This document shows positions 7,634 to 22,965 of a stretch of DNA of 22,965 nucleotides, in pieces. A program made the position numbers and the translations under genes. The number at the start of each line of letters is the position of its first letter. The first letter of the stretch is position 1. The notes beneath the pieces were generated by a model that searched no databases, had not been told where the DNA came from, and saw only the letters and a list, made by a program, of their open reading frames with translations. This DNA is from a virus (lineage: Duplodnaviria; Heunggongvirae; Uroviricota; Caudoviricetes), in IMG/VR virus record IMGVR_UViG_3300045988_053025; one strand, 5' to 3'.

Positions 7634-8620
7634 ATGGCTGTTAAAGGCTTAACTGCGCTAACGCTGGCTGACTGGGGTAAGCGCGTCGATCCAAACGGGA
7701 AAGTCGATAAGATTATCGAGCTTCTCGGTCAAACTAACCCGATCCTTCAGGATATGCCCTTTGTCGAAGGGAACCTTCCTACCGGACACCGAACCACCAT
7801 TCGTTCTGGTTTACCTTCAGCTACCTGGCGTTTGCTGAACTATGGCGTACAGCCAAGCAAATCAACCACAGTGCAGGTAACCGATTACGTTGGCATGCTG
7901 GAAACCTATGCTGAAGTCGATAAGTCACTGGCTGATCTGAACGGCAATACCGCTGAATTCCGCCTGTCTGAAGACCGCGCATTTATTGAAGCGATGAATC
8001 AGCAGATGGCGCAGACGCTGTTTTATGGTGATTCCAGCGTTAACCCTCAGCAGTTTATGGGACTGTCCTCCCGCTATTCCAGCCTGTCTGCGGGTAATGC
8101 TCAGAACATCATTGATGCTGGTGGCACGGGTACAGATAACACCTCAATCTGGTTAGTGGTGTGGGGCGAAAACACCGTGCATGGCATCTTCCCGAAAGGG
8201 CAGAAGGCTGGCATCCAGATGGAAGATAAAGGCCAGGTGACACTGGAAGATGCTAATGGCGGCAAGTACGAAGGCTATCGCACCCATTACAAATGGGATA
8301 ACGGACTTGCTCTGCGTGACTGGCGTTATGTTGTTCGCATTGCAAACATCGATGTCAGCAATCTTTCAGAACCATCCTCTGCCGCAAATATTGCGAAGTT
8401 GATGGTTAAAGCACTACATCGCATTCCAAACCGTGGCATGGGCCGCCCGGTGTTCTACATGAACCGCACTGTAGGCCAGGCTCTTGATCTGCAATCTCTG
8501 GAGAAAACATCTCTGGCGATCAGCGTAAAAGAGACAGAAGGAGAGTGGTGGACTTCATTCCGTGGTGTACCAATCCGTGAAACTGATGCGCTTCTGGAAA
8601 CAGAAGCCCGCGTGGTGTAA
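7634..8620 (+). CDS. major capsid protein
   Basis: About 328 aa, directly after the scaffold gene. Start taken at ATG 7634, which has better spacing to GAGGA (7622-7626) than ATG 7628. Followed by a stem-loop. Confidence 0.7.
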   Translation: MAVKGLTALTLADWGKRVDPNGKVDKIIELLGQTNPILQDMPFVEGNLPTGHRTTIRSGLPSATWRLLNYGVQPSKSTTVQVTDYVGMLETYAEVDKSLADLNGNTAEFRLSEDRAFIEAMNQQMAQTLFYGDSSVNPQQFMGLSSRYSSLSAGNAQNIIDAGGTGTDNTSIWLVVWGENTVHGIFPKGQKAGIQMEDKGQVTLEDANGGKYEGYRTHYKWDNGLALRDWRYVVRIANIDVSNLSEPSSAANIAKLMVKALHRIPNRGMGRPVFYMNRTVGQALDLQSLEKTSLAISVKETEGEWWTSFRGVPIRETDALLETEARVV

Positions 8621-8636
8621 CGCCTGTTATTAACCT

Positions 8637-8656
8637 GTGGGTCGTAACAGACCCAC
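8637..8656 (+). other. stem-loop downstream of capsid gene
   Basis: GTGGGTC-GTAACA-GACCCAC hairpin with no U tract, so probably an mRNA-stabilising or partial-termination structure rather than a full terminator. Confidence 0.3.
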
Positions 8657-8671
8657 TAATGGAGAAAGAAG

Positions 8672-9109
8672 ATGATCACCGACAAACTGTTGATGTTCTC
8701 CGAAGCACAGGCGGTAACTGATACCGCTGCTTCTACTGACGTAATCGATCTCGGTCCAATTGATGGAAACCGTCGCGATATCGGTGTGGGTTACCCGCTT
8801 GAGTTTTGGGTGCTGGTTAACGAAGCCGCCACGGCAAGTGGTGAGGCAACTGTAAACATCCAGTTGCAGACGAGTGAGAATAACAGCTCTTGGACCACTA
8901 TTTATGATAGTGGTGCGTTGGCAAAGGCCACCCTGACAGCAGGTAAGCGAGTTGTTTCTGCAAAGGTGCCAGCCGGTGTTCAGCGATATCTGCGTGTTAA
9001 CTACTCCGTCGCAACTGGCCCACTAACGGCCGGCAAATTCACTGCGGGTATCAGTCTGGATGTTGATGCCAATACGCCGTATCCGATCCGCTCAAAAGTA
9101 ACTGGTTAA
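8672..9109 (+). CDS. virion structural protein (possible capsid decoration protein), 145 aa
   Basis: GGAG RBS 7 nt upstream of ATG 8672; position immediately after the capsid gene; composition suggests a beta-rich protein. Function is inferred from position only. Confidence 0.5.
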   Translation: MITDKLLMFSEAQAVTDTAASTDVIDLGPIDGNRRDIGVGYPLEFWVLVNEAATASGEATVNIQLQTSENNSSWTTIYDSGALAKATLTAGKRVVSAKVPAGVQRYLRVNYSVATGPLTAGKFTAGISLDVDANTPYPIRSKVTG

Positions 9110-9119
9110 GGTGATATCG

Positions 9120-9455
9120 ATGTCAGGTGAGAAACCAAGATACCGCGTTCTGCGCCTCTCTCATATCCATAACACTCTGTGGCCGGAGGGGGCAGAAATC
9201 GAATACGAAGGTGAGCCTGGTAGCGCACTGGAACCTGTTAACGATGCAGCCAGACAGGCAAAAGCAAAAGTTGCAGGAAAGGTGTCAATGGCAGCAACCA
9301 GCACCAAAATCATCAACGATGTGTCAGATGATGGTGAACTGGATAAGCTCCGTGAAGAGTACGAATTGCTCTTTAACGAGAAGCCACACCATAACGCCAA
9401 AGCCGAAACGCTACGCGAGAAGATCGCAGATAAGCGTAAAGAACTGGGCGTGTAA
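9120..9455 (+). CDS. hypothetical virion-module protein (111 aa)
   Basis: ATG 9120 with AAGGTGA 5 nt upstream (ORF track starts at GTG 9111). Followed by a strong terminator. Confidence 0.5.
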   Translation: MSGEKPRYRVLRLSHIHNTLWPEGAEIEYEGEPGSALEPVNDAARQAKAKVAGKVSMAATSTKIINDVSDDGELDKLREEYELLFNEKPHHNAKAETLREKIADKRKELGV

Positions 9456-13052: not shown

Positions 13053-13597
13053 TGTGCGATCCGGTTATTGCTGGTGGCGCAATGCTCGCCATGAGTGGCA
13101 TTCAGGCATACACCCAGTACCAACAGGGAAAGTATGCCTCGAAGGTTGCAGAAGCGAACGCAGATATAGCCACAGCTCAGGCAAATGATGCAATAAACAG
13201 AGGTAACGCTGAAGCTGAGCAACGGCGCAGAGAGACCCGACAGCGGCTTGGTACACAGGCGGCGACAATGGGGGCTACCGGCGCTGATTTATCTACAGGT
13301 AACGCGCTGGATATATTTGGTGACACTGCTCAGTTCGGCGCTCTTGATTCGCTGACGACGGTGAATAACGCGCAACGCGAGGCTTACGGTTATCAGGTTC
13401 AGGCTGCCAACTATAAAGCAGAAGCCAGTTCAGCCCGTAAACAGGGGAATGTGGGAGCAGCAACAACATTGCTCACTGCGCCTCTGAAGGCATACGGTGC
13501 GTACCAGATGCTTGGTGGGACGTGGAGTCCGTTTACTCAAAGCACTCCTGCGCCAATCGGGGCAGCAGCAGGAACCAGATTACCCGGAGGATTATAA
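13052..13597 (+). CDS. putative internal virion protein (181 aa)
   Basis: Ala/Gln/Gly-rich protein coupled to the next gene (TAATG at 13595-13599). Confidence 0.55.
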   Translation: MCDPVIAGGAMLAMSGIQAYTQYQQGKYASKVAEANADIATAQANDAINRGNAEAEQRRRETRQRLGTQAATMGATGADLSTGNALDIFGDTAQFGALDSLTTVNNAQREAYGYQVQAANYKAEASSARKQGNVGAATTLLTAPLKAYGAYQMLGGTWSPFTQSTPAPIGAAAGTRLPGGL

Positions 13598-16314
13598 TGC
13601 CAGTCGTACCAACAGTATCCGGACGCCAGGTGCAAAGTCGTGGTGTGCAAACCGGTGGTTTTCAGACCTTCGATGTTCCTCAAGCAGGTCAGGTGCTGGC
13701 GAATGTCGCAGATCAGTATGCGGTGGCATATGGTGAAGCCAGGCAGAAAGCGAATGTTGCATTGTCTCAGGATGCCATCCTTCAGCTTAATCAGCGCAGC
13801 AATGAACGTCTTTATAACCCTCAAACCGGTTTTTATGCACAACAAGGCAAAAATGCGATTGGTAAGGGGCAAGAGTACATATCTGGATTTGATCAGGATG
13901 TGGAAGAAATAGCTGCTTCATTGACTGATGAAGCAGCAAGAAATATGTTTTTGCAACAAGCCAGAACACAGAAAATTCAGTTCAGTACTGGAGTTCTCAG
14001 ACATGAGATAGGGCAGACAAATGCCTATGAAGATGAGCAATATCAGGCAACGAGAAAATTATGGATACAAAATGAAGCGGATGCCTGGAATGACCCGCAA
14101 ACTGCCACTTTAGCCAGAAATTCCAGAATGGTAGCCATTGCTAGATATGGAGCTGCCAGGGGATGGTCACAAGAACGCATTCTGGAAGAAATAGAAAGTG
14201 ATGATCGCCGTGCCACAGAAATGCGGGCGAAGAATTATGCCGCTGCCAATCCAGAAGGATGGCTAAATGGTCTGTTTCAGAAAAATGATTCTGGAGGCAT
14301 GGATATGCGTGCCATACGCCTTGTTGAATCAGGTGATCGACATTTTAATCCTGATGGTAGTCTTCTTGAAGGACCGATAACATCTTCTGGAGAGAGAGCC
14401 CAGGGGAAATACCAGTTAATGCCGGGCACAGGGAAAGAACTGGCGGCCAAGCGTGGCGTTAAATACAACCCTACGGACGAACAACAGCATGAAATGCTCG
14501 CCAGTGACTATGTAAATCAACTGTATGGTAAGTACGGCTCCGAAATATTGACCGGAGCAGCATATAACTGGGGGATGGGTAACGTGGATAAACTGATCGC
14601 CAAAGTCGGTGATCCACGTAAAGGTGAAATATCAGAAGAAGAATTTATCCGAAATCTTCCATCAGAAACACAAGGGTGGCTTTCCCGATATAGAAAAAAT
14701 AAAACTGGAATGGATCCGCTGACTATTTATCAAATAGATAACCTTGCTAATAGTCAGATAGAAAAGCAAAGGAAGTTAATATTAGAACAGCTTGAGCCAG
14801 CTATTAATAACACCATGGCCCAGCTATATAACGGTGAGGTTCCAGATTATATACCGGCTCAGGAGACTATCATCAGGGGGTATGGAAAAAATGCAGATAA
14901 AATAATCAATCAACTGGATATAGCGATTGATAACGCGAGAATATTCCAGGCAATTCAGTATTTACCTCCTTCTCAGCAGCAAGAAGAAATGCAGAAAGTG
15001 AAGCCTGAGGTTAACGATCCTCACTATGCGTTAAAACTCGATGCTTACGGAAAATTGTCTGCATTGCTTCAGCGATCAAATGAAGCAATTCAGGCGCAAC
15101 GTGATTCACGCAGATTCAATGAGGCGCTGACAATAGGTGAAAAATTAGACCCAAGCAACAAATCAATGCAGAAAGCTGCTGATTACACAGAAATGGCGCA
15201 GAACTTTCGTATTAATGATGCCTCCACTCATGATGGGGTTGTTCGGCTTGTGGCTCAGACTGGCATCATGCCTTCGCAGGTCATCACGCAGCTTTCAGCA
15301 GTATCCAGATCCAGCAATCAGGAAGTGGTTAAAAATGCAGCGAATTTGTTTAGTCGGTTATATGAAACAGACAATGCATCTATTGGAAATATGCCGAAGG
15401 ATATGCAGGGTTTTTATCTGACTGTTAAGCAACTAACAGATTCTGGCATGTCTGCTGATGCGGCTATCGAGCAGGCGCAGAACCTGACGTACAACCAGAC
15501 CGATGCTCTTAAAGCTCAATTGGCATCAACGCAGAGTTCAAAAGAGTACAAAAATAATCGCAGCAAGGCGATGAATTCTGCTGTCAGCAATATGGCGCAG
15601 TGGTTCCGTTGGGATCCGTCTGCGGATGACCAGACGCCGGAAGCAGCTAGATTCCGTAATGACTATCAGACGCTGTATGACATTAACTACCGCGTTGCTG
15701 GTGGTAACGCTGACGTAGCGAAGCAAATGACCAACCAGCAGATAGCCCGCACCTGGAGTATCAGCGAGGTTAACGGAGAAGCGCAGTTTATGAAATATGC
15801 ACCGGAGGCGCTTTATCAATATGGGCCGTCAGGCTGGCAGGCGGCGCAGTGGAAAGCTGAAAAAGAACGGCTGATGTACGGTGAGCGCAAAGAGATTATA
15901 ACAACCAGTCCGACGTTGCTTGGGATCACGTCAGGTAATGCTCCTGTAGTTGAGACAAAAACCCCTGAGAGTCGTATTAATGGAGAATTATTCATAACCC
16001 CTGACGTGTTAACACCTCGTAATGGTGATTACGCCATTATGGTAAGAACTAAGGATGAAAATGGCATCGATCGGGTCCAGCCGTTTTATAACAAACATGG
16101 GCGTCCTATGCGTTGGGAACCATCACTAGAAGATTGGGAACCTTATAAGAAAATGCAGCAGGAACGGGAGCAGTACGAGCAGGAAGAAATTATGCGTGGA
16201 CAGGCTATACGAAACTTCAAAGACAAGCATCGCGCTCTGGATGAGCAGTATCAGCGCCTGCATAACGAACGTATGGACAAATTTAAAGATTACTTTTCGT
16301 GGGGATCTAAATAA
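13597..16314 (+). CDS. internal virion (ejection) protein with lytic transglycosylase-like domain
   Basis: Start taken at ATG 13597 (GGAGG 5 nt upstream), not the ORF-track start at 13522 which lies inside the previous gene. Region ~14296-14590 encodes LVESGDRHF...GKYQLMPGTG...AAYNWGMGNV, resembling the SLT signature (catalytic Glu-Ser, Q-hydrophobic-M, AYNxG). Confidence 0.7.
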   Translation: MPVVPTVSGRQVQSRGVQTGGFQTFDVPQAGQVLANVADQYAVAYGEARQKANVALSQDAILQLNQRSNERLYNPQTGFYAQQGKNAIGKGQEYISGFDQDVEEIAASLTDEAARNMFLQQARTQKIQFSTGVLRHEIGQTNAYEDEQYQATRKLWIQNEADAWNDPQTATLARNSRMVAIARYGAARGWSQERILEEIESDDRRATEMRAKNYAAANPEGWLNGLFQKNDSGGMDMRAIRLVESGDRHFNPDGSLLEGPITSSGERAQGKYQLMPGTGKELAAKRGVKYNPTDEQQHEMLASDYVNQLYGKYGSEILTGAAYNWGMGNVDKLIAKVGDPRKGEISEEEFIRNLPSETQGWLSRYRKNKTGMDPLTIYQIDNLANSQIEKQRKLILEQLEPAINNTMAQLYNGEVPDYIPAQETIIRGYGKNADKIINQLDIAIDNARIFQAIQYLPPSQQQEEMQKVKPEVNDPHYALKLDAYGKLSALLQRSNEAIQAQRDSRRFNEALTIGEKLDPSNKSMQKAADYTEMAQNFRINDASTHDGVVRLVAQTGIMPSQVITQLSAVSRSSNQEVVKNAANLFSRLYETDNASIGNMPKDMQGFYLTVKQLTDSGMSADAAIEQAQNLTYNQTDALKAQLASTQSSKEYKNNRSKAMNSAVSNMAQWFRWDPSADDQTPEAARFRNDYQTLYDINYRVAGGNADVAKQMTNQQIARTWSISEVNGEAQFMKYAPEALYQYGPSGWQAAQWKAEKERLMYGERKEIITTSPTLLGITSGNAPVVETKTPESRINGELFITPDVLTPRNGDYAIMVRTKDENGIDRVQPFYNKHGRPMRWEPSLEDWEPYKKMQQEREQYEQEEIMRGQAIRNFKDKHRALDEQYQRLHNERMDKFKDYFSWGSK

Positions 16315-19300
16315 TGCCAGTTTATGCACAAGCTGAAGATCTTAATAACGGACTGATCCCGTCAGGTAATGTTTTGCCGGAACAAACTGGGTTTGATGTT
16401 GCCCTTCCGGAAGGGGCTAATCCTGAGCCATTGCCACCGGAGCCTTCCGTATGGGGGGCTGCAATGCGACAGAACAATATTCTGGCTGGTTTTTTCCGAC
16501 CAGCCAGACAGTTTGAACCGGTCGAAGGTTATAACCCATATGCTGATAAAAATGAGTTGCACGGTTATGAATACTGGGGGGCGAAATTTGCAGATTCCCG
16601 ATCGCCAGAGGAAACGGCGTGGATTAAGCAGCAGATAGATGATGAAAATGAAGACAGACGTTTATTGTCTGATGCTGGCGTAGTTGGAACCCTTGCCAGT
16701 ATTGCTGCGGGAATGGATCCGGTTACTGTTGCGTCAATGTTTATCCCCGGTGCTCAAGGAGGGGCACTGGCGCGTATTGGCTCACAGATTGCGATTGGTG
16801 CAGCCGGTACAGCATTAAGCGAGGTTGTGCTGAATAATCAGCAAATAACACGCTCATGGGGTGAAAGTGCCGCTCACATTGCAGCGGGTGCGATGATGAG
16901 CGGCGTGTTTGCCAGTGCTGGTGTTGCGCTTTCGCCATCCGTCCGGGCTGCAGCCACGCGTGAGGTTGCTGATGCTCTTGATAATATGAGCATTACATCA
17001 GCGACTGACAGGGCTGCCGCTTCGCTTTCTGATGGTGGTAGTGTTGGTGCTATGAAAATTGATACAGCGACTCTGGATGATTTAACCCCTGTTTCCGGTG
17101 GGGTGGTTGGAAAGGCTGCATGGAAAGCAGGGAGCTATCTTACTCCTTTGACAAGGTTAATGGAGTCTCCGTCCAAGACAGTGCGAAAAACAACGCTGGA
17201 GTTAGCCGAAAATAATTTCACCCTTAAAGGAAATGAAAGGGGGATTGAAACACCGGTAGCTGTAGAAACCCGTACACGTGGATGGCAGCGTGAAGAAGCT
17301 GCTGTTGTTGTCGGAAATAAACAGGCATACGCAAAGTATAAAGCTGATGGTGGTGACATGAGTTTTGATTCATTTCGTCAGCAGGTTGGGAATGCTATGC
17401 GAAGCGGTGATGTGCATGCTAATCCTGTTGTTCAGGAAACGGCGCAGGCGATGCGAACTGTATTAAATCGGGTGAAGGTTGAAATGCAAAAGCTTGGTTT
17501 ATTGCCGCCAGATGAAGAACTGAAAGCATTAGGCCAGGCAAGCTATTTCCCACGTATATATAAAGTTGGAAAAATAATCAGTGAACGCGATAAATTTCGA
17601 CGTATTTTGGTTGACTGGTGGTCGAGAGGCAATAAAACACTGGATCCTGAGGATGCTGAAATTGCAGCGGATATCGTAATTAATAAAATTACTGGTGCTA
17701 AGGTTCCACAGGATTTTGTCAGCGTATTTTCTGTAAAAGCCGCAGGTAGTACGAAAGAAAGAACATTAAATGTGCCTGATAGTCTTATCAGGGATTATCT
17801 CGAAAGTGATGTGAATTACGTTCTACAACGTCATATCCGTGAAGCGGCAGCAGAAATTGAGTTGACGAGAACATTTGGCAAACGAACTATGACAGAGCGT
17901 CTGCAATTAATTGAGGACGAATATGACAGTCTGTTACGGGAAGTGCCTGAAAAAATAAAGGCGAAATATGACGAAAGTGTGGCAAATCTGAAAGCACGTT
18001 ATGAGAGCAATGGTGAAGTTGTTCCTCAGGGTAAACTCGATTCATTAATGCGAAAGTACGAAAAGGAATTACGGAAAGAACAGTCCAGACTTTCAAAATC
18101 AAGAGCAAATGATCTCAGAGACATAACAGCATTACGCGATCGTCTTGTTGGTACATATGGTATGCCTGATGACCCGTCTTCGTTTTTTGTTCGTGCTGGC
18201 GCTTTTCTGCGGGATGTGAACTTCACGACCAAACTCGGTGGAATGACAGTATCAGCTATTCCAGATCTGGCCAGAGGGGTTATGGTTAATGGTTTCCGTA
18301 ACTCCATGAAAGGCTATGCTTCTCAGATATCCCAATCACCGGCATTTAAGGCCAGCAAAGAAGAGATGTTGAAGATGGGGATTGGATTGGAAACTGTACT
18401 ACATTCACGTTCTCGTGCAATTGGTGATCTTGTTGACAGTTCTTCCAGGACAACAGCAGTCGAAGCAGGAATGGAGCGAATTACTGATGCCTTCGGCAAG
18501 CTGACACTCATGGATCGATTTAATGACATAAACAAATCCATGAACGGAATGCTCACGTCAGACGGTATTTTGTCTGGTGCGTTTTCTGCACGTCGCATGG
18601 CAAAACTCGGTATCAACGACAATATGGCTGCGCGTATTCGCAGTGAGTTCGAGAAACATGGTGAGGTAATTGATGGATGGCACATTGGTAACTTTGATAA
18701 ATGGGACGATCAGTACGTTGCCGGAGTATTCCAGTCAGCGGTTCTGAAAGACGTTAATAACACTATCATCACCCCCGGTATTGGTGACACACCTTTATGG
18801 GCGAGTACTCCAATGGGGCGAACGATATTTCAGTTTAAATCATTCACAACGGCTTCATACAACCGTGCGCTACTTGGTGGGTTACAGGAAGGAACTGCGC
18901 AATTTTATTATGGCACTGCATTTCAGATTGCTCTTGGCTCACTGGTCTATGCGCTTAAAGAAGCATCGAAAGGGAAAAATGTTGACTGGTCACCAGAGAA
19001 GCTGGTGCTTGAGGGTATAGATAGATCCGGTATTCTTGGGCCATTGATGGAATATAACAATATGGCTGAAAAGGCTACTGGTGGTGCTGTTGGGCTGGGG
19101 GCTTTATTTGGCACTGGCACACAGTCTAGGTATGCCAGTCGTGGATTCGTAGGATCTCTATTCGGACCGTCATTTGGTCTTGCGGATAGCATCATTGATG
19201 TGACCGCAGGAGTGTTGAATGGTGATGCCGGTGATCGTATTGTGCATAATGTCCGAACCCTGATACCCGGCAATAACCTGTTCTGGATTGCGCCACTAAT

Positions 19301-19328
19301 AAACCAGGTGGATCCGGTGATGCGGTGA
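16314..19328 (+). CDS. large internal virion / ejection protein (1004 aa)
   Basis: Coupled to the upstream gene (TAATG at 16312-16316). Size and position match the large ejection proteins of short-tailed phages; Gly/Ala-rich hydrophobic N-terminal third. Confidence 0.65.
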   Translation: MPVYAQAEDLNNGLIPSGNVLPEQTGFDVALPEGANPEPLPPEPSVWGAAMRQNNILAGFFRPARQFEPVEGYNPYADKNELHGYEYWGAKFADSRSPEETAWIKQQIDDENEDRRLLSDAGVVGTLASIAAGMDPVTVASMFIPGAQGGALARIGSQIAIGAAGTALSEVVLNNQQITRSWGESAAHIAAGAMMSGVFASAGVALSPSVRAAATREVADALDNMSITSATDRAAASLSDGGSVGAMKIDTATLDDLTPVSGGVVGKAAWKAGSYLTPLTRLMESPSKTVRKTTLELAENNFTLKGNERGIETPVAVETRTRGWQREEAAVVVGNKQAYAKYKADGGDMSFDSFRQQVGNAMRSGDVHANPVVQETAQAMRTVLNRVKVEMQKLGLLPPDEELKALGQASYFPRIYKVGKIISERDKFRRILVDWWSRGNKTLDPEDAEIAADIVINKITGAKVPQDFVSVFSVKAAGSTKERTLNVPDSLIRDYLESDVNYVLQRHIREAAAEIELTRTFGKRTMTERLQLIEDEYDSLLREVPEKIKAKYDESVANLKARYESNGEVVPQGKLDSLMRKYEKELRKEQSRLSKSRANDLRDITALRDRLVGTYGMPDDPSSFFVRAGAFLRDVNFTTKLGGMTVSAIPDLARGVMVNGFRNSMKGYASQISQSPAFKASKEEMLKMGIGLETVLHSRSRAIGDLVDSSSRTTAVEAGMERITDAFGKLTLMDRFNDINKSMNGMLTSDGILSGAFSARRMAKLGINDNMAARIRSEFEKHGEVIDGWHIGNFDKWDDQYVAGVFQSAVLKDVNNTIITPGIGDTPLWASTPMGRTIFQFKSFTTASYNRALLGGLQEGTAQFYYGTAFQIALGSLVYALKEASKGKNVDWSPEKLVLEGIDRSGILGPLMEYNNMAEKATGGAVGLGALFGTGTQSRYASRGFVGSLFGPSFGLADSIIDVTAGVLNGDAGDRIVHNVRTLIPGNNLFWIAPLINQVDPVMR

Positions 19329-19339
19329 GTTAAACACCT

Positions 19340-19903
19340 TTAGCATGATTCAGGGGAAACCCCAATATTAAATATGAGTGTCTCCCCTGAATCAGCATAA
19401 TAATGTAATATTATTGACTTACGTTGTTTTCTTGCTTCGTAGAATAAACGCTCTTGCGGCGATAATTTGTGAAAACTGCCGGATGCACAATATATGTTTT
19501 TTAACTTTTCGCGGGTTTCTTTTATTGTATCTTCTGATATGTATTTTAGGTATTTATCCGTATAGATGTTGCTACTATAAGAAATTAATGTTTTGCTGTT
19601 GTTGTGATGTATTGTATTTTTATCGTTGAAGTCTGTATTTTTATTTACTGTCATTAGGTTTTTAATGATTACATGTAATACAATAGTCTCCCCATCATCA
19701 ATTCCATATTTGATGTCATAGTCAGTATATTTATTTGTTATACCGCTTCCTGATAGCGGCACTATGTACTCTGAGAAAAATGAGTTTGCCGCGTGACTAT
19801 CAAGAGCAATAGCAGTTTGTTTGTGGTAAAAATAAAACAATATTGAGAGAGTCAAAATAATAGCGACGCCTAATGCAACCTTTAATATAGATATGGTTTT
19901 CAA
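19340..19903 (-). CDS. membrane protein in AT-rich accessory operon (possible superinfection-exclusion protein)
   Basis: Minus-strand ORF 19340..19951. Start preferred at TTG 19903-19901 with AAGGAG (reverse complement of 19911-19916) 7 nt upstream, giving an N-terminal transmembrane segment KTISILKVALGVAIILTLSILFYFY. Visibly AT-rich with Asn/Lys/Ile-rich codons. It occupies the slot where P22 carries sieA, as I recall. Confidence 0.5.
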   Translation of the reverse strand: MKTISILKVALGVAIILTLSILFYFYHKQTAIALDSHAANSFFSEYIVPLSGSGITNKYTDYDIKYGIDDGETIVLHVIIKNLMTVNKNTDFNDKNTIHHNNSKTLISYSSNIYTDKYLKYISEDTIKETREKLKNIYCASGSFHKLSPQERLFYEARKQRKSIILHYYADSGETLIFNIGVSPESC

Positions 19904-19993
19904 AATATCGCTCCTTGTTGTAACATACATCAGTAATGTGGCGTTTTTCAATTGTATTAAAGACGTGTAATATGTACACGCCTTTTGTTCTTC

Positions 19994-20425
19994 CTATTCA
20001 GGTATTTCAATTCCAAAACCATCTGCATCCCATGAGTTTTCACAGATGATGTAACCTAGTTCATTGAGCTTATTAAATGTTTTTTCAAAGATGATCTGGT
20101 AATCATTATCTGCAAGTGATTCCAGTTCAAGGTCATTAAGGTTTATATAAAAACTTGTATGTCCAAGTGTTATTTTCTTATTAATTTCATTAAAGGTTCT
20201 TTTGAAAATAATATTTGATATTTCATGTCGTGCATTGTTTGCAATGATTTTTGCTTCATAAGCAGAAATTACGTCATCTTCATGAATATCTTTCAGAAAG
20301 CTGGTGTCAAGACGTTGTACTATTTCAGCGTTCATTGATCGCTTATTGGCTTTTGCAGAAATTTCTATTTTTTCTTTTACTTCGACGGGAAGTCTGATCC
20401 TTAGTTGTGGATCTTCTCTGCTCAT
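19994..20425 (-). CDS. mnt: Mnt-like ribbon-helix-helix repressor with extended C-terminal domain
   Basis: From ATG 20425-20423 the N-terminus MSREDPQLRIRLPVEVKEKIEISAKANKRSMNAEIVQRL aligns well with the P22 Mnt N-terminus as I recall it (ARDDPHFNFRMPMEVREKLKFRAEANGRSMNSELLQIV). The protein is about 143 aa with a ~100-residue C-terminal extension of unknown function. Divergent from the arc-like gene. Confidence 0.6.
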   Translation of the reverse strand: MSREDPQLRIRLPVEVKEKIEISAKANKRSMNAEIVQRLDTSFLKDIHEDDVISAYEAKIIANNARHEISNIIFKRTFNEINKKITLGHTSFYINLNDLELESLADNDYQIIFEKTFNKLNELGYIICENSWDADGFGIEIPE

Positions 20426-20481
20426 GTTCTTCACCAAATATTGAGTTACTTGCAATGATTGAAGTATGCCTCACCGTGTGC

Positions 20482-20510
20482 TTGACATCAATGACGCACG
20501 GTGTGACAAT
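20482..20510 (+). promoter_or_regulatory. sigma70-type promoter for the arc-like/ant operon
   Basis: Perfect -35 TTGACA (20482-20487), 17-bp spacer, extended -10 TGtGACAAT (20502-20510). CACGGTG-type motifs flank and overlap it. Confidence 0.45.
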
Positions 20511-20516
20511 TATTTT

Positions 20517-20531
20517 GCCCCACGGTGGGGC
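20517..20531. promoter_or_regulatory. operator-like inverted repeat GCCCCAC-g-GTGGGGC
   Basis: 15-bp near-perfect palindrome between the putative -10 and the RBS (AAGGAG 20533-20538) of the arc-like gene. The 12-mer GCCCCACGGTGG recurs at 20723-20734. Confidence 0.45.
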
Positions 20532-20545
20532 TAAGGAGATATGAA

Positions 20546-20713
20546 ATGCAAAAAGCAAAAGAGATGTGTCAACGACGAGTTCGTTTTCCGGACGATGTGA
20601 AGTTAGCTATTGAAAGAAATGGCGAAAAAGAATGCCGAAAGTTCAATACAGAGATTATCTATCAGCTGAGGAAAGTGTATGGACTCACTGGTGAGAAGAA
20701 TAGCGTGGCATAA
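20546..20713 (+). CDS. arc: Arc-like ribbon-helix-helix repressor (55 aa)
   Basis: ATG 20546 with AAGGAG 7 nt upstream. The sequence RRVRFPDDVKLAIERNGEKECRKFNTEIIYQLRKVY resembles P22 Arc as I recall it. Small, directly upstream of the ant-like gene and divergent from the mnt-like gene. Confidence 0.55.
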   Translation: MQKAKEMCQRRVRFPDDVKLAIERNGEKECRKFNTEIIYQLRKVYGLTGEKNSVA

Positions 20714-20719
20714 AACAGC

Positions 20720-20752
20720 GAAGCCCCACGGTGGCCAGACCGTCAGGGCTTC
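20720..20752 (+). promoter_or_regulatory. second operator-like site inside a stem-loop between the arc-like and ant-like genes
   Basis: GAAGCCC (20720-20726) pairs with GGGCTTC (20746-20752), enclosing GCCCCACGGTGGCC, a repeat of the motif at 20517. Confidence 0.35.
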
Positions 20753-20785
20753 AGTATCGTAAAACTACGTATAGGAATTAACGAC

Positions 20786-21721
20786 ATGACGAGTATAGCA
20801 ACAGCAGTATCTACTATCAACGTGCCATTCCACGGCGCAGAGCTTTATGTTGTCAATCACAACGGCGAACCGTATACCCCAATGAAACCTATCGTTGAGG
20901 GAATGGGGCTAGACTGGAAATCTCAACATAAGAAGATTTCTCAACGCTTCTCGAAGGGTATGGTGGAAATCACCATACCTTCTGCCGGTGGGGTGCAAGC
21001 CATGATTTGTATGGCTTTACGAAAATTGGCAGCTTGGTTGAACAGCATCAGCCCTAACAAAGTCCGCCCTGAAATCCGCGACAAGGTAATCCAGTATCAG
21101 GAAGAGTGTGACGATGTGCTCTACGAGTACTGGACTAAAGGCCATGTGGTTAACCCACGCAAAGCTAAAAAGGCGTTGCCGGGTAAAATAACAACTGAAC
21201 AGCAGGAAGCCATTAAACAACTCGTCATGAGTCGCGGTCAGTCTCTGCCAAAAGAAAAACAGGCTAAGGCGATGATCACCATGTGGTCGTCACTGAAATC
21301 TCATTTTGGCTGTTCGTACAAAGAAATTGGTGAAGATCAATTTGCCGAAGCGTTGTCTCTTGTTGCTCGGGTTCCGCTTGAAGGGGAGTATCTCCCTGCT
21401 GGATCTGCATCAGAGAATGATGAAGTGGCAGTCAAGATGTTAGATGCGCTTCGTGAGGCAATTAAAACACAGACAAAATGTTATGGTTATCCATTGAAGC
21501 CAGGCTACCGCAGTCTGATTCATTCGCCGTCGGGTGTTCTCGGCCTGACGGAGAACTCACTGCTGATGAATCTGCTGAACCAGTTACAGGACGGGCACGA
21601 TGTATCGGGCGCGGCGGCGGAGCTGACCACCATGTTCTGCTACATCGTCGGTGTGAGCAAATGCCTGCGTGATATCCAGACGCACGCGGAATACATCAAC
21701 GACAAAGCAGGGTTCTTCTGA
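20786..21721 (+). CDS. ant: phage antirepressor (Ant-like)
   Basis: 311 aa; N-terminal VPFHGAELYVVNHNGEPYTPMKPIVEGMGLDW fits the antirepressor / Bro-N-type pattern as I recall it. Sits downstream of the arc-like gene in a P22 immI-like arrangement. Its 3' end is duplicated in inverted orientation at the right edge of the window. Confidence 0.6.
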   Translation: MTSIATAVSTINVPFHGAELYVVNHNGEPYTPMKPIVEGMGLDWKSQHKKISQRFSKGMVEITIPSAGGVQAMICMALRKLAAWLNSISPNKVRPEIRDKVIQYQEECDDVLYEYWTKGHVVNPRKAKKALPGKITTEQQEAIKQLVMSRGQSLPKEKQAKAMITMWSSLKSHFGCSYKEIGEDQFAEALSLVARVPLEGEYLPAGSASENDEVAVKMLDALREAIKTQTKCYGYPLKPGYRSLIHSPSGVLGLTENSLLMNLLNQLQDGHDVSGAAAELTTMFCYIVGVSKCLRDIQTHAEYINDKAGFF

Positions 21722-21745
21722 CAGAACGGCGGCACAGGGACGTGC
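21590..21745 (+). repeat. inverted repeat, left arm (3' end of ant plus ~24 bp downstream)
   Basis: Reverse complement of 22811..22965 matches 21590..21745 with 4 mismatches across the 132 coding nt, all synonymous, plus a short indel in the 3' flank. The repeat probably continues beyond the window. Confidence 0.85.
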
Positions 21746-21771: not shown

Positions 21772-21796
21772 AGGCCGCTTTCGCGGCCTTGTTTTT
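21772..21796 (+). terminator. rho-independent terminator downstream of ant
   Basis: AGGCCGC-TTTC-GCGGCCT hairpin followed by TGTTTTT; overlaps the stop of the minus-strand small ORF. Confidence 0.65.
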
Positions 21797-21956
21797 AACG
21801 AATGCCACCGCCACCCGGGCGGGAATCCGCAGAACGCCCACCGCAGCGGGAGCCGTCAGCGGCAGTATCGCTGTCGTGCTGACAACGACCGGCAAAGGCC
21901 TGAGTTGAAGCTACCAGAGACAACAAAACGAACAGTGCAGCAAATGCTTTTTTCAT
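21795..21956 (-). CDS. small secreted peptide (53 aa) with signal peptide
   Basis: From ATG 21956-21954 the translation is MKKAFAALFVLLSLVASTQAFA|GRCQHDSDTAADGSRCGGRSADSRPGGGGIR: basic N-region, hydrophobic core, AxA cleavage motif, mature part with two Cys and a Gly-rich tail. The longer ORF-track start (GTG 22028) abuts a terminator and lacks an RBS. Confidence 0.4.
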   Translation of the reverse strand: MKKAFAALFVLLSLVASTQAFAGRCQHDSDTAADGSRCGGRSADSRPGGGGIR

Positions 21957-22028
21957 TGTGAAATTTCCATCTATAAGCCACCTCAATGTGGCGTCAATGA
22001 GTGTAGCACTGACTTTTGTTTCGTCCAC

Positions 22029-22054: not shown

Positions 22055-22687
22055 TTAATGCAGTTTATCTTTGCTTATAACCAGTAGTCTGTGGGTATGC
22101 ACATCTTTATCACTGCCCCAACAGAAATCAGCCCACTGGCTATAGAAATCATCCCATGATGCCATGAAGCTAAGAGGTCTATCTTCTTCAGAGCCATCTG
22201 AAACGTATACATTATATCCTGGGGTGTTTATAGCCCAAGAAATCATTCTTTCCCAGAATCTTCTCCCATCGATTGTTTGTTGCTCATCAGATACAACGAT
22301 CGCATATTGCTCTAGGAAGAACTGAAAAAAAATCTGAGGCAAACCATGAACAGCACGGTCATGAATAACATTAGGCGTACGCCATACCATGATCTGCGTA
22401 CATGTTCTTTTGGCTTCGACGATATCTTCCCGAAAGATTAACTTAACCGCATACACCGTTTCTGGAGTATCGCTGGTAGTAATCATTCTGTAATGATCGC
22501 CATTACAAGATTTTACAAGGCGATAACCATAAGGTGTTGTGAATCCCGGAAGAACGAAATCAACCACACCTTTCGCTAAGTAGCTTTCGGTGTGACTAGT
22601 GTTCTTCTCAGACATGTTCAGTTTTCTATCGAAATCTGCTTCTGGGATAATGTATGGCATCGCTTTTCTTGTTGTATTTGTTCTCAT
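22055..22687 (-). CDS. hypothetical protein (210 aa), orphan accessory gene with own promoter and terminator
   Basis: ATG 22687-22685 with GGAGG 5 nt upstream on the minus strand, a candidate promoter upstream and an intrinsic terminator downstream. Trp/Phe/Asp-rich C-terminal half; no family recognised. Confidence 0.6.
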   Translation of the reverse strand: MRTNTTRKAMPYIIPEADFDRKLNMSEKNTSHTESYLAKGVVDFVLPGFTTPYGYRLVKSCNGDHYRMITTSDTPETVYAVKLIFREDIVEAKRTCTQIMVWRTPNVIHDRAVHGLPQIFFQFFLEQYAIVVSDEQQTIDGRRFWERMISWAINTPGYNVYVSDGSEEDRPLSFMASWDDFYSQWADFCWGSDKDVHTHRLLVISKDKLH

Positions 22688-22789: not shown

Positions 22790-22833
22790 TCTGTACAGAA
22801 TTATTTAAAGGCACATCCCTGTGCCGCCGCCCG

Positions 22834-22965
22834 TCAGAAGAACCCTGCCTTGTCGTTGATGTACTCCGCGTGCGTCTGGATATCACGCAGGCATTTGCTC
22901 ACACCAACGATGTAGCAGAACATGGTGGTCAGCTCCGCCGCCGCGCCCGATACGTCGTGCCCGTC
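22834..22965 (-). CDS. antirepressor-like protein, C-terminal fragment (gene continues beyond window)
   Basis: Minus-strand frame encodes ...DGHDVSGAAAELTTMFCYIVGVSKCLRDIQTHAEYINDKAGFF then stop (reverse complement of 22834-22836), identical in protein sequence to the last 43 residues of the ant-like gene at 20786..21721. All four nucleotide differences are synonymous. Confidence 0.55.
   Translation of the reverse strand, partial: DGHDVSGAAAELTTMFCYIVGVSKCLRDIQTHAEYINDKAGFF

Follow-up and report, generated by a model that had tools for sequence, protein, structure and literature searches.

The immI region of phage P22 is the textbook model of DNA recognition by ribbon-helix-helix (RHH) proteins and of antisense control, and it has so far been treated as a feature of P22-like phages. 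Its mechanism is established knowledge, summarized in PMC2629481 and PMC7380047. In P22-like phages (ε34, CUS-3, HK620 and others) the 'ant moron' is a highly variable, independently expressed insert of the late operon that often comprises mnt, arc and ant (Villafane et al. 2008, PMC2629481); both the immI system and the moron concept are already well known (PMC2629481). Here we consider a module of this type at positions 19,994 to 21,721 of a 22,965-nucleotide stretch of viral DNA (Caudoviricetes; IMG/VR record IMGVR_UViG_3300045988_053025), the whole of which we call the window. From sequence comparison we interpret the locus as a moron, an immI-type cassette for antirepressor control located among the late genes of a prophage of ε15/phiV10-like (Uetakevirus) type, and we give this interpretation a probability of roughly 0.8. 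The cassette is intact, and it is a variant of the known P22 immI system rather than a new kind of system.

Three open reading frames (ORFs) make up the module, one leftward (19994-20425) and two rightward (20546-20713 and 20786-21721), with a control region of 120 nucleotides (nt) between the divergent genes. A sequence-only reading of the window had placed here a leftward Mnt-like RHH gene, an Arc-like RHH gene and an antirepressor gene, arranged divergently around a shared promoter region on the pattern of P22 immI. The divergent arrangement holds: gene order and orientation are those of P22 immI, and a promoter-like TTGACA-17-GACAAT sequence lies between the divergent genes. The likeness to immI extends to the gene families, their order and the antisense RNA sar with its promoter Psar; it fails for the operator layout and for the C-terminal parts of the Mnt-like and Ant proteins. 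The genes, their family memberships, the RNA, the promoter-like sites and the operator palindromes with their conservation are direct observations, and all ORFs, promoter-like sites, operators and the sar RNA are intact in the window. Lengths below are in amino acids (aa) and base pairs (bp).

19994..20425, minus strand: mnt-like gene, 143 aa, with an N-terminal RHH DNA-binding domain and a C-terminal alpha/beta domain of ~90 aa
20463..20491, minus strand: candidate leftward mnt-like promoter, -35 TTGATG at 20491..20486, 17 nt, -10 CATACT at 20468..20463
20468..20482, no strand assigned: O1, an imperfect 15-bp palindrome, GCCTCAC-C-GTGTGCT, inside the spacer of the candidate leftward promoter
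20482..20510, plus strand: rightward promoter (Pant equivalent), TTGACA, 17 nt, GACAAT, with an upstream TG; 10/12 consensus positions
20493..20507, no strand assigned: O2, GACGCAC-G-GTGTGAC (GACGCACGGTGTGAC), overlapping the spacer and -10 of the rightward promoter; the arc operator of P22 has this position
20517..20531, no strand assigned: O3, a perfect palindrome, GCCCCAC-G-GTGGGGC (GCCCCACGGTGGGGC), near +1 of the rightward transcript; the mnt operator of P22 has this position
20546..20713, plus strand: arc-like gene, 55 aa, a small RHH protein
20717..20784, minus strand: sar-like antisense RNA across the ant ribosome-binding site, folded into two hairpins of which the second is a terminator
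20786..21721, plus strand: ant gene, 311 aa, a chimeric antirepressor
20792..20820, minus strand: Psar-like promoter, TTGATA-17-TATACT, inside ant codons 3-12; 10/12 match

The leftward ORF (19994-20455) matches PF03869 (Pfam Arc) with 54.3 bits against a cut-off of 20.4 (E=1.2e-14) and is 32% identical to P22 Mnt over 88 aa (BLASTP E=4e-14), which bears out the proposed Mnt-like gene. Its family profile matches the solved Mnt structure, PDB 1mnt (E=1.8e-7), and the nearest named relatives of its RHH domain in the phage collection are the Mnt proteins of P22-like phages. Translation most likely starts at the ATG at 20425, because the PHROG profile, the alignment with P22 Mnt and the RefSeq annotation all begin there. 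The architecture departs from that of P22 Mnt (~83 aa), in which only a C-terminal tetramerization helix follows the RHH domain. In the AlphaFold2 (AF2) model, a long helix (residues 55-87) that may correspond to this C-terminal helix is followed by an extra beta-alpha-beta-beta unit (91-140), for which no structural relative was found in the PDB or BFVD. The N-terminus, MSREDPQLRIRLP, is near-invariant across 36 diverse members. At the predicted DNA-facing beta-strand positions, whose assignment is established structural knowledge of Arc and Mnt, the residues are Q-R-R (Q-x-R-x-R).

The gene proposed to encode an antirepressor does so by family: Ant matches PF10547 (P22_AR_N) at E=6e-45 (152.6 bits, cut-off 30.7), and over 217 aa it shares 39% identity with P22 Ant. 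Identity to the Ant of CUS-3, a P22-like phage, is 89% over residues 1-222, and at the DNA level sar and the first 200 ant codons (20720-21389) are 94% identical to CUS-3. Residues 212-311 are 82% identical to the C-terminus of the Bro-N protein gp46 of Escherichia phage TL-2011b, with the last 60 aa nearly identical. As judged from these alignments, Ant is a chimera, its first ~205 aa CUS-3 Ant-like and its last ~100 aa matching the Bro-N antirepressor of the phage backbone itself.

For the rightward ORF 20525-20713 the most likely start is the ATG at 20546, preceded by an AAGGAG Shine-Dalgarno sequence and used also in TL-2011b gp41 and RefSeq WP_001167931. The Arc-like protein matches phrog_228, 'Arc-like repressor' (1.8e-5), aligns with P22 Arc in register with Arc residues 1-39 (BLASTP E=5e-5), and reaches hhalign probabilities of 82% against Arc and 85% against the RHH domain of the Mnt-like family. 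Its predicted DNA-contact residues are Q-R-R, with Q-K-R in most homologs. Size, position and the BLASTP match agree with the Arc-like gene that had been proposed; the Pfam Arc match falls below threshold, and the sequence-level assignment is weak but consistent. Set against the Mnt, Arc and Ant families, all three proteins fall within the Mnt/Arc RHH and P22 Ant families, the Arc-like one weakly.

Relatives of the 143-aa Mnt-like protein are numerous in Enterobacterales, with 262 at the level of 90%-identity clusters, and their sole annotation is 'Arc family DNA-binding protein'. We find the same control cassette at 17 loci, spread over at least 12 enterobacterial genera. The survey loci come from Enterobacter, Yersinia pestis and 14 genomes of Kluyvera, Citrobacter, Dryocola, Xenorhabdus, Pantoea, Rouxiella, Proteus, Morganella, Raoultella and Mixta, and control regions were compared over 16 distinct cassettes. 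Throughout the surveyed loci, a gap of 118-129 nt separates the Mnt-like gene from an Arc-like gene of 55-58 aa, which is followed after 39-102 nt, usually 72-73 nt, by an antirepressor-type gene. The arrangement is not a product of chance, since 17 loci of many genera have the gene order, the spacing and the control sequence in common. Among isolated phages in the collection, the full-length long Mnt is found in TL-2011b only, the other matches being the Mnt proteins of P22-like phages.

The rightward promoter has the layout of P22 Pant, and its -35 and spacing are kept in the 16 cassettes. All three palindromes of the control region belong to one half-site family, nnCnCAC, with spacings of 25 bp (O1-O2) and 24 bp (O2-O3). 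O3 and the annotated P22 mnt operator, AGGTCCACGGTGGACCT, have the core CCACGGTGG in common, and the O3 centre lies 14 bp past the -10, compared with 15 bp in P22. O2 is identical in 14 of the 16 distinct cassettes, and O3 varies symmetrically among loci (for example CCTCAC-C-GTGAGG and GTCACAC-C-GTGTGAC). O1, a near-perfect palindrome in most other loci (GCCCCAC-S-GTGGGGT), is at its most degenerate in the window, with 4/7 symmetric positions. C3, C5 and A6 never vary in the 96 half-sites of these cassettes; C7 is retained in 94, and the centre base is free. The CACSGTG core occurs 7 times in the 22,965-bp window against 2.7 expected, and four of the seven fall within 262 bp here (Poisson P ~4e-8). 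The leftward -10 reads CATAAT in nearly all other cassette loci; if the leftward promoter is real, the two candidate promoters stand back to back with start sites ~61 bp apart. Our best guess is that the Mnt-like protein would bind O3 (and O1) and the Arc-like protein O2.

The sar RNA is a fourth immI component, one that the sequence-only reading did not list. In the window it fills the 72-nt gap between arc and ant, scores 44.8 bits with Rfam RF00262 (gathering score 43, E=4.6e-7) and has a folding z-score of -2.3. The site of the Psar-like promoter agrees with the P22 record, the -10 in both cases ending at +7 of the ant ATG. With a covariance model of our own, trained on five sequences, the window's sar scores 72 bits, and a sar-like RNA antisense to the arc-ant junction is found in every locus (E 1e-11 to 1.3e-4 outside the training set). 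Rfam at its gathering threshold gave no sar match on loci L012-L025; because our model finds sar in every locus, we attribute this to filters and divergence. In an alignment of 19 sar sequences, 90.6% of cells pair, against 31-56% in slid controls, and compensatory changes occur in 13 of 23 pairs, counts that lean toward structure because the alignment was fitted to the model. Of 18 loci compared, P22 among them, 13 have their best antisense promoter match placed so that the -10 stops at +7 of the cargo ATG, irrespective of the cargo domain, and this placement suggests that the conserved cassette reaches into the first cargo codons.

A second sar-like match lies ~1 kb past the first in the Xenorhabdus loci, at 1571-1653 in L024 (37.8 bits), 1560-1643 in L016 (21.8 bits) and 1559-1640 in L023 (21.6 bits). 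It may mark another antisense-controlled gene downstream of the KilA-N cargo.

By homology with P22, from which the binding events, their timing and the target of Ant are carried over, the circuit would operate as follows. In a lysogen, the Mnt-like repressor would be made from the weak leftward promoter and would occupy the palindromic operators around the strong rightward promoter, keeping arc and ant silent. Once a phage genome reaches a cell that lacks Mnt-like protein, the rightward promoter would fire and give a burst of Arc-like protein and Ant. The Arc-like protein would then bind the promoter region and shut it off, and sar RNA, made from Psar inside ant, would pair with the ant ribosome-binding site and block further translation. 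Ant itself would bind and inactivate a prophage repressor. This is probably the Uetakevirus repressor, because the C-terminal ~100 aa of Ant are common to the phage's own Bro-N antirepressor.

The module sits in a backbone of a different kind from that of P22. The window is 97.6% identical to TL-2011b, a phage classed in Uetakevirus (PMC11522302), over 92% of its length; it is 97.9% identical to phiV10 over 53%, 97-98% identical to other Uetakeviruses over the virion genes and 77% identical to ε15 over 35%. By PHROG families, the virion and packaging genes are homologous to and collinear with those of phiV10 and ε15. Just ahead of the module, two large genes (13522-19328) fall in 'internal virion protein with endolysin domain' families, so the module does follow ejection-protein genes, and the whole virion module is ε15/phiV10-like on a Uetakevirus backbone. 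The mosaic with a non-P22 virion module that had been suspected is thus confirmed. In phiV10 and ZX5, the internal virion protein genes are followed by a few small genes and then the Bro-N gene; because these phages lack the module, we regard it as an insert in an ε15-like late region. The G+C content drops to 30-36% over 19300-20500. The whole module is present in 35 of 5426 complete Escherichia coli genomes, with at least 99.6% identity among the 15 matches listed.

Several points weigh against our interpretation. The Arc-like protein scores 12.3 bits with Pfam Arc, under the 20.4 cut-off (E=0.15), and its AF2 monomer model is poor (pLDDT 57) and was used for helix positions alone; a fold search with that model was dropped for the same reason. 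Pfam gave no P22_AR_C (PF10548) match in Ant, and the repressor that Ant would target is encoded outside the window. The candidate leftward promoter, read from the sequence, matches 8/12 consensus positions and lies under the scanner cut-off. Between -35 and -10 the P22-type arc operator (21 bp, TAGA boxes) is absent, and O2 stands there instead; because of this absence, and because all operators are of one family, the P22 division of labour may not apply. The position of O1 in the spacer of the candidate mnt-like promoter suggests autorepression, unlike P22, where Mnt binding favours its own promoter. Finally, TL-2011b, the sole isolated phage with the cassette, has a frameshift in the mnt-like gene: its record holds one extra C (GATCCCTTAG vs GATCCTTAG; window 20399-20400, near 7100 in L001) that breaks the frame at codon ~9-10, and gp40 is annotated with 113 aa. 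The frame is intact in the window and in one chromosomal E. coli copy. The cassette may therefore be dispensable or already disabled in TL-2011b. We speculate that a phage isolated as free particles may no longer have the repressor that silences ant, and such a loss is a possible explanation of the frameshift.

Alternatively, the regulatory cassette could be real and its cargo something other than an antirepressor of the resident prophage. In that case the proteins with P22_AR_N, Bro-N and KilA-N domains would serve as DNA-binding proteins or as factors against competitors, for example by inducing or disabling other resident prophages or by acting in superinfection conflict. The survey lends this some support, as the cargo behind the same controller is freely swapped and may be P22_AR_N, Bro-N with P22_AR_C, Bro-N alone, or KilA-N with ANT. 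So does the presence of another antirepressor gene in the phage, that of the Bro-N protein, which in TL-2011b is preceded by C4/isrK-type RNAs. P22 Ant, moreover, acts on the repressors of other lambdoid phages. Cross-talk of antirepressors is treated in PMC7380047. Counter to this, the last ~100 aa of Ant, with their 82% identity to the backbone Bro-N antirepressor, point to a resident repressor as target, and in a sister Uetakevirus the Bro-N protein lowered lysogeny: overexpression of ZX5 ORF4, to which the backbone's Bro-N protein is 100% identical, cut lysogens from 1e9 to 1e6, about 1000-fold (PMC9782041). We consider a role against competitors unlikely, and an immI-type switch acting on a resident repressor remains our preferred interpretation.

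The module might also be an inactive remnant, acquired by recombination and no longer regulating anything. The 1-bp insertion in TL-2011b, the existence of truncated variants (P0002, P0078), the degenerate O1 of the window and the ability of phiV10 and ZX5 to manage without the module would all fit such decay. Against decay stand the intact ORFs, promoter-like sites, operators and sar of the window, the near identity of the E. coli prophage copies among the matches listed, and conservation across genera that includes compensatory changes in sar and symmetric changes in O3. Loss of function in this copy of the immI-type cassette is thus very improbable.

That the two RHH genes belong to a partition or toxin-antitoxin type system instead of an immunity switch can be dismissed, because no ATPase, toxin or other partner gene accompanies them, the downstream gene is always of antirepressor type, sar and Psar are present, PADLOC and NCBIfam gave no match reaching a family threshold on the cassette and neighbouring proteins (which leaves a defence-system reading unsupported as well), and the 'partition' label looks like annotation noise, being attached to genuine P22-type mnt genes themselves.

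The survey points beyond this locus. Of the surveyed loci, two have annotated flanks: the Enterobacter cassette lies among siphovirus tail genes, and that of Y. pestis lies between lambda-type tail genes K and I. We raise tentatively, as a proposal we would not yet favour, that the unit of long Mnt, three operators, 55-aa Arc, sar and Psar is a self-contained, portable antirepressor controller that moves between the late regions of unrelated phages, with its cargo swapped by recombination just downstream of Psar, in the first ~12 codons. As part of the same proposal, the two repressors may compete for the same operators, because the predicted contact residues Q-x-R-x-R and the half-site family nnCnCAC are common to both. 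Were that so, the early/late and maintenance logic would be set by oligomerization through the C-terminal domain of the Mnt-like protein and by the timing of expression, and not by distinct DNA specificities as in P22. In the Y. pestis lambda-like prophage (L009), we also observed two IS200-type Y1 transposase genes at 7993-9300, each with an STnc490 RNA match (152.6 bits), among tail genes near the cassette.

Around the module, three further features are of interest.

19964..19980, no strand assigned: possible terminator hairpin just 3' of the mnt-like stop; the terminator-like match was scored on the plus strand
21772..21789, plus strand: intrinsic terminator-like hairpin after ant, a seven-pair stem with 6 G-C pairs, then a T run
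22833..22965, minus strand: 3' part of a convergent Bro-N-type gene, the second antirepressor gene, truncated where the window stops; it corresponds to TL-2011b gp46

The first of these hairpins possibly serves the minus strand as the mnt-like terminator. The 3' end of ant (21590-21722) and the Bro-N gene (22833-22965) form a 133-nt inverted repeat that is 97% complementary, and the 1.1-kb segment between its arms could in principle invert. Within that segment lie two leftward genes, 21795-22028 and 22055-22687 (both minus strand), for a small signal-peptide-like protein (phrog_3117/14503, 'membrane associated protein') and a 210-aa protein (phrog_1349, no function label). The same slot holds a YafO-family toxin gene and a small ORF in TL-2011b and a frameshifted DUF2335 gene in E. 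coli 2015C-4498, and looks like a variable cargo slot. Directly upstream of the Bro-N gene, TL-2011b (L001, 9608-10549) carries Rfam matches to the C4 antisense RNA, isrK and a1/b1 targets. TL-2011b therefore holds a P1-immI-like module beside the P22-immI-like one.

On the other side of the module, the gene at 19340-19951 (minus strand) encodes a protein of 187-203 aa with one N-terminal hydrophobic segment, has 30-35% GC and its own promoter-like sites, and belongs to phrog_8033, which has no function label. A weak TIR-like ThsB match was seen for it (E=0.006). We rejected this 203-aa neighbour as a homolog of SieA (E=0.11); it is analogous by position alone.

Parts of the cassette have been labelled before, as the TL-2011b RefSeq record already gives 'Arc-like repressor' and 'anti-repressor Ant'. 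Our literature search found no description of an immI-type module in Uetakevirus or TL-2011b, of the long-Mnt family or of the three-operator layout, an absence that such a search does not prove. In the ε15-like prophage described here, which belongs to Shiga-toxin-producing E. coli lineages, the same circuit has a longer Mnt and another operator logic, and by our survey Enterobacterales prophages commonly carry the controller, with antirepressor cargo that can be swapped. Together these loci form a natural set of variants for asking how two RHH repressors share or divide one operator family. They may serve equally for asking how antirepressors couple the induction of co-resident prophages, including the Stx phages of the same strains.

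Looking across the known systems, control of an antirepressor by antisense RNA is shared with immI of P1/P7 (c4 antisense RNA, icd, ant) and with the Salmonella isrK-type loci. Those use another RNA family and lack RHH repressors, and the TL-2011b copy of that type is a separate convergent module. The LexA-controlled antirepressors (186 Tum, Gifsy, SPC32H Ant) resemble Ant as small proteins that inactivate a non-cleavable prophage repressor, and SPC32H is an ε15-like phage according to PMC7380047, which cites Kim and Ryu 2013. Their control lies with host LexA and the SOS response, whereas here, by analogy with P22, it would lie with phage RHH repressors and an antisense RNA.

The ant moron has been described only for P22-like virion modules; here the same type of insert is found in an ε15-like podovirus, and sister cassettes are located in a lambda-like prophage of Y. 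pestis and, in Enterobacter, next to tail genes of siphovirus type. Of the P22-like phages with the moron, CUS-3 appears to lack arc according to the ε34 paper (PMC2629481). In CUS-3 (L003) we noted an unannotated small ORF (MKVKTLRMPEKLEKILEEKAKEECRSFSAEVIKRVL...) with an RHH-like pattern at 3163-3303 (plus strand), between the mnt genes and sar, in the 'bsq2 boundary sequence'.

The closest relative is P22 immI itself (mnt/Pmnt-Pant/arc/sar/ant). The two have in common gene order and orientation, a site between the ejection-protein genes and the tailspike or tail-fibre gene, a homologous Mnt RHH domain, the N-terminal two-thirds of Ant, the placement of sar and Psar and, 14-15 bp past the -10, a palindrome that resembles the mnt operator and contains the CCACGGTGG core. 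The sieA-mnt-arc-ant block of P22 lies between its genes 16 and 9, and the module occupies the equivalent place in an ε15-like late region. P22 has terminators after ant and after mnt, and terminator-like hairpins stand at both places here. The two also differ. P22 Mnt has 83 aa, compared with 143 aa and an extra alpha/beta domain here; the predicted contact residues are H-N-R in P22 Mnt and Q-R-R in the Mnt-like protein, Q-N-R in P22 Arc and Q-R/K-R in the Arc-like protein. The C-terminus of P22 Ant is P22_AR_C, and that of the Ant described here is not. Pant and Pmnt overlap almost fully in P22, whereas the candidate promoters here are back to back. P22 has two unrelated operators, the arc type with TAGA boxes, in contrast to the single family of three palindromes here, with spacings of 25 and 24 bp. 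Lastly, the P22 circuit belongs to a Lederbergvirus backbone and this one to a Uetakevirus.

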